In this document: one piece after another, positions 21,671 to 22,595 of the stretch
How the letters are laid out: every line of letters begins with the position of its first letter
Position numbering within the stretch: the first letter of the stretch is position 1
NCBI RefSeq assembly: GCF_000011465.1
Contig: NC_005072.1
Span: 1,050,001-1,082,000 of the forward strand
DNA length: 32,000 bases
From: Prochlorococcus marinus subsp. pastoris str. CCMP1986
Lineage (GTDB): Bacteria > Cyanobacteriota > Cyanobacteriia > PCC-6307 > Cyanobiaceae
Reading direction: 5' to 3'
Position numbers and translations under genes: made by a program
The notes under the pieces: model-generated
Database searches by the model: none
Told to the model about the DNA's origin: nothing
The model's input: the letters and a program-made list of their open reading frames with translations, nothing else

Positions 21671-22303
21671 TTAATCAATAAGTGCAACCCATGAAAAGGC
21701 TGCTCCAATACCAATTAAAATTCCCGAAACCAAATTTTTATTCTTTAAAATTCTTCCAATATGCTCTGATAAGTATAGGACTATTAAGAGCAAAGATCCT
21801 TGCCCTATAAATATTCCTAAAAAGTAACTTAATAGAGGACTTTGCTCAGCACCAACAATTGCACCTCCTATCAAGTAACCATGCAAAGAGATCATGGGTA
21901 AAAGTAATGAGCTAGGTAAATAGCCCAAAATTATCAAACTTTCTAAAACTAAGCTTAAAGATACTAATGCTTCTGCGTAGGGGATCATAAATTCTGGCAA
22001 TGACAAAATTTGCGCAATAGCACTTCCAATTAAACCAAAACCTAATAAAGGTAATATCCATTTTTTTTGGGATCTCAATCCAATAAGACTTATTGCCAAA
22101 ATAAAAAGGAGATGGTCTGGACCCAATAAGGGATGACCAATACCACTGATAAAACCCTGCCAGGAAGTTAATGTGGAACTCTCACCCATACCAAATGGAT
22201 GATGAGCAAATACTGGATTATAGATACTAATAAAAAACAAATATACAGGGAAGATTATTAAAGAGACTTTTAAGTTCTTATGAAAAAAATTTTTAGAATT
22301 CAT
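21671..22303 (-). CDS. hupE: HupE/UreJ-family metal (Ni/Co) transporter
   Basis: From the ATG at 22301-22303: MNSKNFFHKNLKVSLIIFPVYLFFISIYNPVFA-HHPFGMG, a signal peptide followed by an N-terminal His pair. GHPLLGPDHLLFILA is the HupE/UreJ signature. The track's 236-aa version starts at a GTG in the upstream gene. Confidence 0.8.
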   Translation of the reverse strand: MNSKNFFHKNLKVSLIIFPVYLFFISIYNPVFAHHPFGMGESSTLTSWQGFISGIGHPLLGPDHLLFILAISLIGLRSQKKWILPLLGFGLIGSAIAQILSLPEFMIPYAEALVSLSLVLESLIILGYLPSSLLLPMISLHGYLIGGAIVGAEQSPLLSYFLGIFIGQGSLLLIVLYLSEHIGRILKNKNLVSGILIGIGAAFSWVALID

Positions 22304-22316
22304 TTTTCTATTCAAA

Positions 22317-22454
22317 TTAATGATCTTTGCATGGCGAACATTCTTCACAATCTGTACATTCGCAAGGACAAACACAACCACAACCTGGACAAACTTCTTT
22401 CTCGTTTAAAATCAAAGTATCTGTTAATAAATGTTTTGTAAAAGTAATAACCAT
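22317..22454 (-). CDS. 45-aa cysteine-rich (metallothionein- or metallochaperone-like) peptide, not in the ORF track
   Basis: Codon-by-codon hand translation gives MVITFTKHLLTDTLILNEKEVCPGCGCVCPCECTDCEECSPCKDH, with 9 Cys in the last 24 residues. The stop lies 13 nt before the hupE ATG. Confidence 0.5.
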   Translation of the reverse strand: MVITFTKHLLTDTLILNEKEVCPGCGCVCPCECTDCEECSPCKDH

Positions 22455-22547
22455 AATTTAAAAATTTATTTCTAAATATAAATTATATATGACTAAAAAT
22501 CAATGCTAGTAATAATTTATACATTTTATAAAATTAAAATAAAAAAC

Positions 22548-22595
22548 GATTATCATTTTTATTTAGATAATGAAAATCATATTCATGATTATTAT
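22548..22595. promoter_or_regulatory. Fur-family-operator-like cluster of GATAAT/ATTATC hexamers upstream of the Cys-rich/hupE pair
   Basis: GATAATGAAAATCATATTC (22566-22584) matches the classical Fur box GATAATGATAATCATTATC at 16 of 19 positions. It is flanked by GATTATCATTTTT and CATGATTATTAT. The AT-rich background lowers the significance. Confidence 0.35.

Follow-up and report, generated by a model that had tools for sequence, protein, structure and literature searches.

The window analyzed here is a 32,000-nucleotide (nt) stretch of the genome of Prochlorococcus marinus subsp. pastoris, strain CCMP1986, also known as MED4 (NC_005072.1, positions 1,050,001 to 1,082,000 of the forward strand), and all coordinates given below count from its first letter. 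We examined a small gene on the minus strand that encodes a metallothionein-like peptide of 45 amino acids (aa), together with the predicted operator upstream of it and the gene for a HupE/UreJ-family permease downstream of it. A first-pass annotation, made from the sequence alone, had described these three parts as a compact metal module on a mobile cassette. The locus comprises the following features:

21431 to 21504, plus strand: tRNA-Pro(UGG), the integration site and proximal border (Rfam)
21553 to 21576, no strand assigned: second copy of a 24-nt repeat, separated from tRNA-Pro by 49 nt
21671 to 22303, minus strand: hupE, HupE/UreJ-family permease, 210 aa (PF04955, E 3e-18)
22304 to 22316, minus strand: 13-nt spacer from the peptide stop to the hupE ATG, with putative co-transcription across it
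22317 to 22454, minus strand: gene for the 45-aa, nine-Cys metallothionein-like peptide, ATG start, identical to CAP16460.1 (MED4)
22475 to 22503, minus strand: predicted sigma-70-type promoter (TTGATT, 17 nt, TATATT), with a predicted transcription start at about 22468
22541 to 22561, minus strand: proximal Zur-type box AAAAATGATAATCGTTTTT, one mismatch to AATGATNATCATT, core at -103 from the peptide ATG
22566 to 22584, minus strand: distal box of the Fur family with core TGATTTTCATTATC, agreeing with the classical Fur box at 16 of 19 positions
22584 to 22596, minus strand: weaker third box site upstream of the peptide gene
22734 to 22757, no strand assigned: 24-nt repeat (A)AAGGGTAGCTAGAGGGGTAGCTA inside the distal end, 96% identical to the copy at 21553-21576
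22881 to 22926, plus strand: partial 3' tRNA-Pro copy (att scar), the distal border and a direct repeat of the tRNA-Pro 3' half

The open reading frame (ORF) at 22317..22454 runs from an ATG at 22454 to a TAA at 22319-22317, exactly where the first-pass annotation had placed a 45-aa peptide with nine cysteines, and its translation is MVITFTKHLLTDTLILNEKEVCPGCGCVCPCECTDCEECSPCKDH. Cysteine makes up 9 of the 45 residues (20%), and all nine lie within the 21-residue core CPGCGCVCPCECTDCEECSPC, spaced C-x2-C-x-C-x-C-x-C-x-C-x2-C-x2-C-x2-C, with Asp and His beyond it toward the C terminus. The peptide has two of the three properties by which we defined the metallothionein class operationally: a small protein of high Cys content, and CxC/CxxC spacing with zero aromatic residues in the core; the third, binding of several metal ions in thiolate clusters, is putative. 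An AlphaFold model, computed without metal, gave no confident fold (pLDDT, predicted local distance difference test, 53.5), which is expected because the fold would be metal-dependent. The predicted tryptic peptide of the protein is EVCPGCGCVCPCECTDCEECSPCK.

Homologues are numerous and closely related. A search of 5.8 billion proteins returned 36 homologue clusters with 64 to 98% identity to the peptide, and scanning metagenomes yielded at least 244 loci carrying the family. A profile search of 1.84 billion representatives detected 34 representatives at 50% identity, all members of the peptide family, and zero relatives beyond it. In the alignment of homologues, the core CPGCGCVCPCECTDCEECSPCKDH is almost invariant and the first 20 residues are variable. 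Among 37 aligned sequences, seven of the nine Cys positions show conservation of 90% or more, four of them without exception, and the other two hold Cys in nearly all; at the level of aligned genes, 38 of 39 have Cys at all nine positions. Some variants carry an in-frame expansion of a TGTGGT (Cys-Gly) repeat (CPGCGCGCGCGCGCVC...; locus L020 557-718, protein P0010), and slippage in this repeat therefore makes the number of Cys ligands changeable.

The small frame is kept in more than 70 Prochlorococcus-like loci. For a selection test, we used 39 distinct 138-nt peptide genes from low-GC (Prochlorococcus-like) contigs. The ratio of nonsynonymous to synonymous differences (pN/pS) in the Cys core was 0.30 in the Cys frame (pS 0.53), compared with 1.26 and 0.69 in the other two frames. 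Stop codons are absent from the Cys frame, and both other frames are interrupted in all 39 genes. Each Cys column switches between the codons TGT and TGC, and codon-position entropy is highest at the third position (0.79, versus 0.46 and 0.37 at the first and second). These patterns, which bear out the small frame and its Cys pattern as a conserved unit, argue that the 45-aa ORF is a genuine gene.

The first-pass annotation had called the peptide unlisted, which holds for the ORF track it worked from but not for public databases. Identical sequences are deposited as CAP16460.1 ("conserved hypothetical protein," MED4/CCMP1986), KGF87336.1, KGG08157.1, and WP_173028028.1, the UniRef entry A0A0A2B4T1 bears the name "Metallothionein", and the neighboring genes of the window match CP138976.1. 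Our literature search found no paper on the family; the gene is annotated publicly, and the family was never studied in the literature searched. Searches of PHROGs with the peptide returned no family, and membership in the BmtA/SmtA family (PF02069) failed, as no Pfam family matched at E ≤ 1. In the best explanation, the peptide belongs to a new, metallothionein-like sequence family that occurs only in genomes of the high-light Prochlorococcus kind and in the T4-like phages of these.

Upstream of the peptide ATG, the first-pass annotation had seen a Fur-box-like cluster, and we located boxes 90 to 140 nt away, with sites at -103, -127, and -142. The site at 22566-22584 agrees with the classical Fur box at 16 of 19 positions and is the sole match of this quality in the window, with 0.06 expected by chance. 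Loose box matches are not enriched in this AT-rich DNA (7 observed versus 8.75 expected), although three of the seven cluster upstream of the peptide gene. Because loose matches are this common, it is comparative conservation that carries the support for the boxes. We attributed to chance one further box-like site, at 31387-31399, which falls within a small ORF.

Among 45 distinct regions upstream of peptide homologues, 44 contain a match to AATGATNATCATT with at most two mismatches at -102 to -117 from the ATG, and 40 of the 45 contain one with at most one mismatch, compared with 0.7% of shuffles. The position of the box is kept regardless of the neighboring genes, and in six loci of 3.8 to 10 kb (L011, L028, L041, L174, L175, and L023) sites with at most one mismatch occur solely upstream of the peptide gene. 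An alignment of 44 promoters contains three conserved blocks, aAAAATGAT..TCaTTTTca, ATTGAcTTT, and TTTATAtTTA, of which the last two constitute a TTGAYT-17-TATATT promoter with conserved hexamers and spacing. In the MVITF subfamily, a second box stands about 53 nt farther upstream. The two main boxes are 24 nt apart in the window (22541-22596) and about 53 nt apart in strain SB (L002 3690-3750) and others, which suggests an indel in the operator region.

The conserved operator stood up to comparison, though as a better match to a zinc-type than to a generic Fur box. The core of the boxes is that of the cyanobacterial Zur consensus NTNANAATGATNATCATTNTNAN, the RegPrecise consensus used by Mikhaylina et al. 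(PMC9337993). The family consensus also equals, at all conserved positions, the Zur site AAAATGATAATCATTtTCATaaT predicted between znuC and znuA-COG0523 in MED4 (Haas et al. 2009, Additional File 5; PMC2770081), and the L023 box is identical to that site at 21 of 23 positions. The two near-identical operators sit at similar distances from the start codon (-116 for znu, about -105 for the peptide family); they differ in that the number of boxes in the peptide family ranges from one to six, every one of them upstream of the promoter hexamers, and the znu site is itself a prediction. A conserved Zur box in orthologous promoters, as expected of a member of a cyanobacterial Zur regulon, is present in this family, and we infer that Zur rather than Fur acts at these boxes.

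About 45 bp separate the boxes from the predicted -35 hexamer downstream, and they overlap neither it nor the -10. A similar arrangement is known from bmtA of Synechococcus WH8102, which has two Zur boxes upstream; Zur binds both, at least one of which lies beyond the -35, and activates the gene for safe zinc accumulation (PMC9337993). This geometry mildly favors activation as for bmtA, with repression under metal sufficiency as the alternative. A divergent member of the family (P0058, GC 0.28; L186 152-325) has a perfect box in an array of as many as six box-like sites, spaced at about 32 nt. It has a further perfect box pair (L186 4379-4397; L187 4062-4080) beyond the adjacent operon of DUF1097, nitrile hydratase (NHase), and COG0523 genes, upstream of that operon, and the end of the contig holds a nearby ABC-3 (ZnuB/MntB-type) gene.

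The stop codon of the peptide gene lies 13 nt before the ATG of hupE at 22303, as had been claimed. The permease scores 66.3 bits against PF04955 (gathering cut-off 23), carries the HupE signature HPxxGxDH as HPLLGPDH in its first membrane helix, and has a signal peptide ending ...VFA/HHPFG. HPxxGxDH is the motif of the HupE/UreJ family, a cyanobacterial HupE is a demonstrated cobalt importer, and cobalt permeases are typically encoded beside Co-type NHase (PMC7689651). A longer, GTG-initiated hupE ORF of 236 aa (21671..22381) is the hupE frame extended backwards through the peptide gene. The first-pass annotation was right to treat it as an artefact: the frame is unselected across the core (pN/pS 1.26) and meets a stop within the 138-nt gene in all 39 peptide genes, although in the window this stop sits upstream of the GTG at 22381. 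Public gene calls for hupE disagree in the same way (234 aa versus 210 aa).

We found this HupE in five genomes (SB, MIT 9314, and three single-cell genomes), and the peptide frame directly precedes hupE wherever upstream DNA is present. The gap between the two genes is 13 nt in all loci where it was measured (L002-L003, L018-L020, L030, L033, and L040), and hupE is also directly downstream in L004 and L005. The exact peptide occurs in 219 collection blocks; hupE was the next gene in all ten places that we read, with differing outer flanks. Together these observations suggest that the peptide gene and hupE are co-transcribed. From its context, HupE may transport nickel or cobalt. The window HupE shares the HPxxGxDH signature with HupE of Synechocystis PCC 6803, the type that imports cobalt, and it is 50% identical to a HupE encoded within a Co-type NHase cluster, an arrangement that recalls NhlF with the cobalt NHase of Rhodococcus. 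Unlike these HupE systems, hupE in the window has no B12 riboswitch and stands behind a Fur-family box and a Cys-rich peptide gene. An Rfam scan of the window found no riboswitch, B12 or other, and reported only two tRNAs and the Yfr21 RNA.

The peptide gene and hupE are the only credible genes between tRNA-Pro and the first partial tRNA-Pro copy (22881-22926), so the two form the sole cargo of this first segment, as the first-pass annotation had stated. Further partial 3' copies of tRNA-Pro occur in the window at 25396-25441 and 28845-28885. The same tRNA-Pro bracket surrounds peptide and hupE in L002, L003, L019, and L174-L183; the 24-nt repeat recurs beside att copies in other genomes, and in most of the places where the pair was read, tRNA-Pro fragments and the repeat together enclose it. 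From these borders, we conclude that the peptide-hupE unit is a discrete mobile cassette of about 1.4 to 1.5 kb. The cassette resembles tycheposon-type cargo in its tRNA-adjacent island, in the stacked partial tRNA copies from serial integrations, and in its nutrient or metal acquisition content; stacked integration scars are described for tycheposon-targeted islands (bioRxiv 10.1101/2020.12.28.424599). It has the flanks expected of a tycheposon-related element, a full tRNA on one side and a partial repeat on the other. It differs in having no integrase or replication module within its roughly 1.4 kb, as only two genes lie between the att copies, and its gene content is that of leftover or minimal cargo and falls short of a whole element. 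The three-part module described by the first-pass annotation is thus borne out in its anatomy (operator, peptide, permease, and tRNA-Pro brackets), with metal binding as a predicted property.

Short repeats (GGTAGCTAGAGGGGTAGCTA; tandem AGGGGGCTCTAA) lie beside each tRNA-Pro att copy (21553-21576, 22734-22757, 23000-23023, and 25214-25273) and are possible arm sites for a recombinase. In the next cassette, the cargo is a 491-aa protein with an autotransporter beta-domain (PF03797; 23083-24558, minus strand). On the other side, the small RNA Yfr21 (Rfam RF02368, 246 bits) lies at 19553-19757 on the minus strand, about 1.7 kb from the tRNA-Pro integration site. Two paralogues of about 380 aa (15058-16200 and 18274-19419), 99% identical over 300 nt, flank a gene for a 613-aa TPR/sulfotransferase protein; judged by this identity, the pair is a recent duplication inside the island.

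We took a census of contexts in 70 non-redundant low-GC loci, a sample biased toward hupE by the fetching of some loci. The contexts of the peptide gene were:

19 of 70 loci: hupE downstream
15 of 70 loci: divergent gene for 70 aa with the ending GDCSCC, across a common intergenic region that bears the boxes
8 of 70 loci: convergent COG0523 gene 37 to 134 nt away, closing a DUF1097-NHase beta-alpha-accessory-COG0523 cluster
7 of 70 loci: DUF1348
3 of 70 loci: VTT/DedA
18 of 70 loci: none of these five

The peptide precedes hupE in the homologous hupE loci that have upstream DNA, and hupE accompanies the peptide in 19 of the 70. As hupE is one context among several, the peptide gene with its operator is an autonomous gene. 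The NHase alpha subunit of the COG0523 context has the motif CTLCSCY, which marks the cobalt type, and a GC-rich picocyanobacterial contig (L184 2995-6984) joins DUF1097, HupE, NHase beta and alpha, the accessory gene, and COG0523 in one cluster, the HupE of which is the one 50% identical to that of the window. Two of the recurrent contexts, hupE and COG0523 with Co-type NHase, point to cobalt. On L184, a second, thiocyanate-hydrolase-like three-gene set follows the NHase cluster. A second peptide subfamily (MFTSFLKNIYLNNLSVSNNKVCSGCGC...), found in L041 (4574-4786) and 14 other loci, shares its 215-nt box-bearing intergenic region with the divergent 70-aa gene, for which Pfam gave no match; that gene may encode a co-regulated second small Cys protein.

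Matches of higher GC content (0.36 to 0.45) proved to be contigs of T4-like cyanomyoviruses. We located these homologues through DNA patterns and flanking genes; a tblastn search with the peptide against 50,697 phage records gave no match, probably owing to the low-complexity filter. A Cys-rich ORF is present at about 100 loci among L061-L171 (e.g., L077 596-736, L095 1856-1999, and L074 5025-5114) and in S-SSM7 (L173 1473-1562), and it is absent from the isolates P-HM2, S-SSM4, and S-ShM2. The gene upstream encodes 165 aa and belongs to gene cluster 237, present in 284 phage records. The Cys-rich frame overlaps the signal-peptide codons of gene cluster 236, shifted by one base, so that, for example, MKKILVLTVGAFVLANV in one frame is CPDCGCICPCEC in the other. 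The two start codons are 5 to 7 nt apart, and the start of the Cys-rich ORF often overlaps the stop of gene cluster 237. In S-SSM7, a 29-aa version is annotated as SSSM7_228 (gene cluster 1368, hypothetical protein), and the overlapping gene cluster 236 frame is unannotated.

The phage matches might have been an alternative-frame artefact of the gene cluster 236 signal peptide, and selection on the Cys frame ruled this out. A phage subgroup has a 22-residue N-terminal extension (MINDFLDNLAAQQYLK...), which lies outside the search pattern by which the loci were found; in 16 codons of this extension, L077 and L095 differ by 10 synonymous and 0 nonsynonymous changes. Across 22 distinct sequences, pN/pS in the stretch outside the search pattern was 0.11 in the Cys frame versus 1.11 and 2.03 in the others. 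The phage versions are 29 to 47 aa long, with 6 to 7 residues before the first Cys and no host-type N terminus. In the phage cores closest to the window core, 17 of 26 residues and 71 to 73% of nucleotides are identical to it. SSSM7_228 has a homologous core, MSNEESTCDCCGCVCPCECEDCECCPCGA, which contains the host CGCxCPCEC core; it differs from the host genes in having no operator, in overlapping the gene cluster 236 signal-peptide codons, and in being coupled to the stop of gene cluster 237. The unselected reading of the hupE frame in the window, MVVFVLANVQ, echoes the phage signal peptide MVVVVSALANVQ.

The signal-peptide codons of gene cluster 236 are rich in Val, Ala, and Leu, and their shifted reading is intrinsically Cys-rich. 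A tentative scenario, which we would sooner doubt than accept, is that the family is a metal-handling gene shared by virus and host that was born by overprinting of the gene cluster 236 signal-peptide codons and later captured by Prochlorococcus as a gene standing on its own, where it would have gained its N terminus and Zur operator and, in one lineage, become coupled to a cobalt permease. If this is true, an auxiliary gene of metallothionein-like type lies concealed within another gene in phages, and Prochlorococcus acquired a metallothionein from its viruses.

On balance, the mobile cassette probably encodes a cytosolic protein that buffers metal through its thiolates under Zur control, together with a Co/Ni(/Zn) permease. 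With its nine core cysteines and the C-terminal Asp and His, this peptide would hold some three divalent ions, or a larger number of Cu(I), in a thiolate cluster; both the binding and the metals named are predictions. A near-consensus promoter, preceded by one to several Fur-family 7-1-7 boxes, would drive the peptide gene, and since the boxes match the cyanobacterial Zur box, we propose that expression is set by the zinc sensor Zur. Co-transcribed with it, the permease would move Co2+ or Ni2+, and possibly Zn2+, across the inner membrane, and the peptide would buffer or trap the arriving metal or mop up competing Zn; it may also hand metal to COG0523-type chaperones and cobalt enzymes. The whole operator-peptide-permease cassette would move between genomic islands. 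Zinc competes with cobalt uptake in Prochlorococcus, and under one control logic zinc-loaded Zur would activate the genes, so that zinc is sequestered by the peptide and HupE sustains the entry of cobalt in the face of this competition. Under the other, the regulator would repress at metal sufficiency, and scarcity would induce both an importer and an intracellular sink. The position of the boxes mildly favors the first.

Known metallothioneins offer partial parallels. BmtA/SmtA (PF02069) of Synechococcus is likewise a small Cys-rich cytosolic protein of marine picocyanobacteria, but it has no sequence similarity to the peptide and another Cys spacing, as the peptide has contiguous CxC runs and lacks the aromatic and His zinc-finger-like elements of SmtA; unlike BmtA/SmtA, the peptide gene is mobile on tRNA-flanked cassettes, in a predicted operon with a permease. 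The vertebrate metallothionein beta-domain (M3Cys9) has the same nine cysteines in CxC/CxxC motifs within 20 to 30 residues and no aromatics, and this likeness gives the expected stoichiometry of three divalent ions. The beta-domain differs in its unrelated sequence and origin, and the peptide has an extra 21-residue N terminus without Cys.

Several observations weigh against a zinc-regulated metallothionein. The peptide is not similar to any known metallothionein family (Pfam at E ≤ 1, NCBIfam cut-offs, PDB sequences at E ≤ 10), and its N-terminal 21 codons evolve fast (pN/pS about 1.2), although length and start codon are kept. The locus sample is skewed toward hupE, and the DUF1348, VTT, 70-aa-gene, and "none" contexts, which form the majority, have no evident metal link. 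As the boxes are clear of the -35 and -10, simple repression is not obvious, while activation by Zur at high zinc would need a special rationale for co-inducing an importer. Fur and Zur boxes are also hard to separate in AT-rich Prochlorococcus DNA, and the Zur motif of Haas et al. also matches iron genes in MED4, in the futC/ferritin cluster (PMC3323870).

This last overlap of motifs favors a reading in which Fur or another Fur-family sensor binds the boxes, the module answers to iron, nickel/cobalt, or peroxide, and the peptide binds Fe or Cu or is a thiol redox buffer. Agreement with the classical Fur box at 16 of 19 positions and the presence of at least three Fur paralogues in cyanobacteria (PMC9337993) fit it too. 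The agreement of the family consensus with the predicted znuC/znuA site, the near-perfect Zur core AATGATNATCATT in 40 of 45 promoters, and the lack of any iron gene linked to the peptide in 70 loci make this reading unlikely in our view. We also counted in its favor that proteins with Cu(I) thiolate centers typically have CxC runs. The peptide might instead be a small structural zinc or disulfide protein that acts by binding other proteins, such as a phage-derived modulator of a host factor later fixed in islands. The strong selection on the cyanophage homologue (pN/pS 0.11; SSSM7_228), the location of host copies in islands full of phage-related traffic, and the many host contexts without metal genes would suit such a protein, which is nonetheless improbable given the conserved Fur-family operator before the host copies (44 of 45), their recurrent linkage to hupE and COG0523/Co-type NHase, and the lack of a conserved partner; nine Cys in 21 residues also far exceed one structural site.

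The first-pass annotation had itself offered a modified-peptide precursor as an alternative, in which a leader is removed and the Cys core of a ribosomally made natural product is converted to thioether or thiazole. Size and two-part layout are compatible with this, and a model for the lantibiotic epilancin gave a weak match below threshold (E 0.028, 14.6 bits versus a cut-off of 75). In known precursor families, however, the leader is conserved and the core varies, the reverse of what we found; the phage versions have only 6 to 7 residues before the first Cys, the peptide has no double-glycine site, and no LanM, radical-SAM, cyclodehydratase, or peptidase/ABC exporter gene adjoins it in the window or the 70 loci. 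We regard this origin as very improbable. Lowest of all we place a regulatory upstream frame without protein function, which would control hupE through stalling at Cys codons or in response to metal. A short frame 13 nt before hupE with a run of one rare amino acid has the right look, but its amino acids are conserved through many synonymous changes, and the surroundings of the phage homologues are quite unlike those of the host copies. In about 50 of the 70 loci, none of the reference-set genes follows downstream in the same orientation, and at least 15 of these have a convergent gene starting 35 to 135 nt away; the existence of these stand-alone copies brings this idea close to refuted.

A Zur-controlled thiolate buffer would bear on a gap. 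Prochlorococcus is the most abundant phototroph of the ocean, has an absolute requirement for cobalt, and is unusually sensitive to zinc and copper. It has repeatedly been stated to lack metallothioneins, with no metallothionein gene, and its way of coping with excess zinc has been called unexplained (PMC8374608, PMC3323870). The phage homologue may represent an auxiliary gene of a new class, and it offers a clean case, found in nature, of dual coding over a signal peptide. A thiolate protein under the control of a Zur box would supply a missing piece of Prochlorococcus metal homeostasis, and its travel on small island cassettes with a cobalt-type permease, or its position adjoining cobalt NHase genes, could explain differences in metal tolerance among strains.

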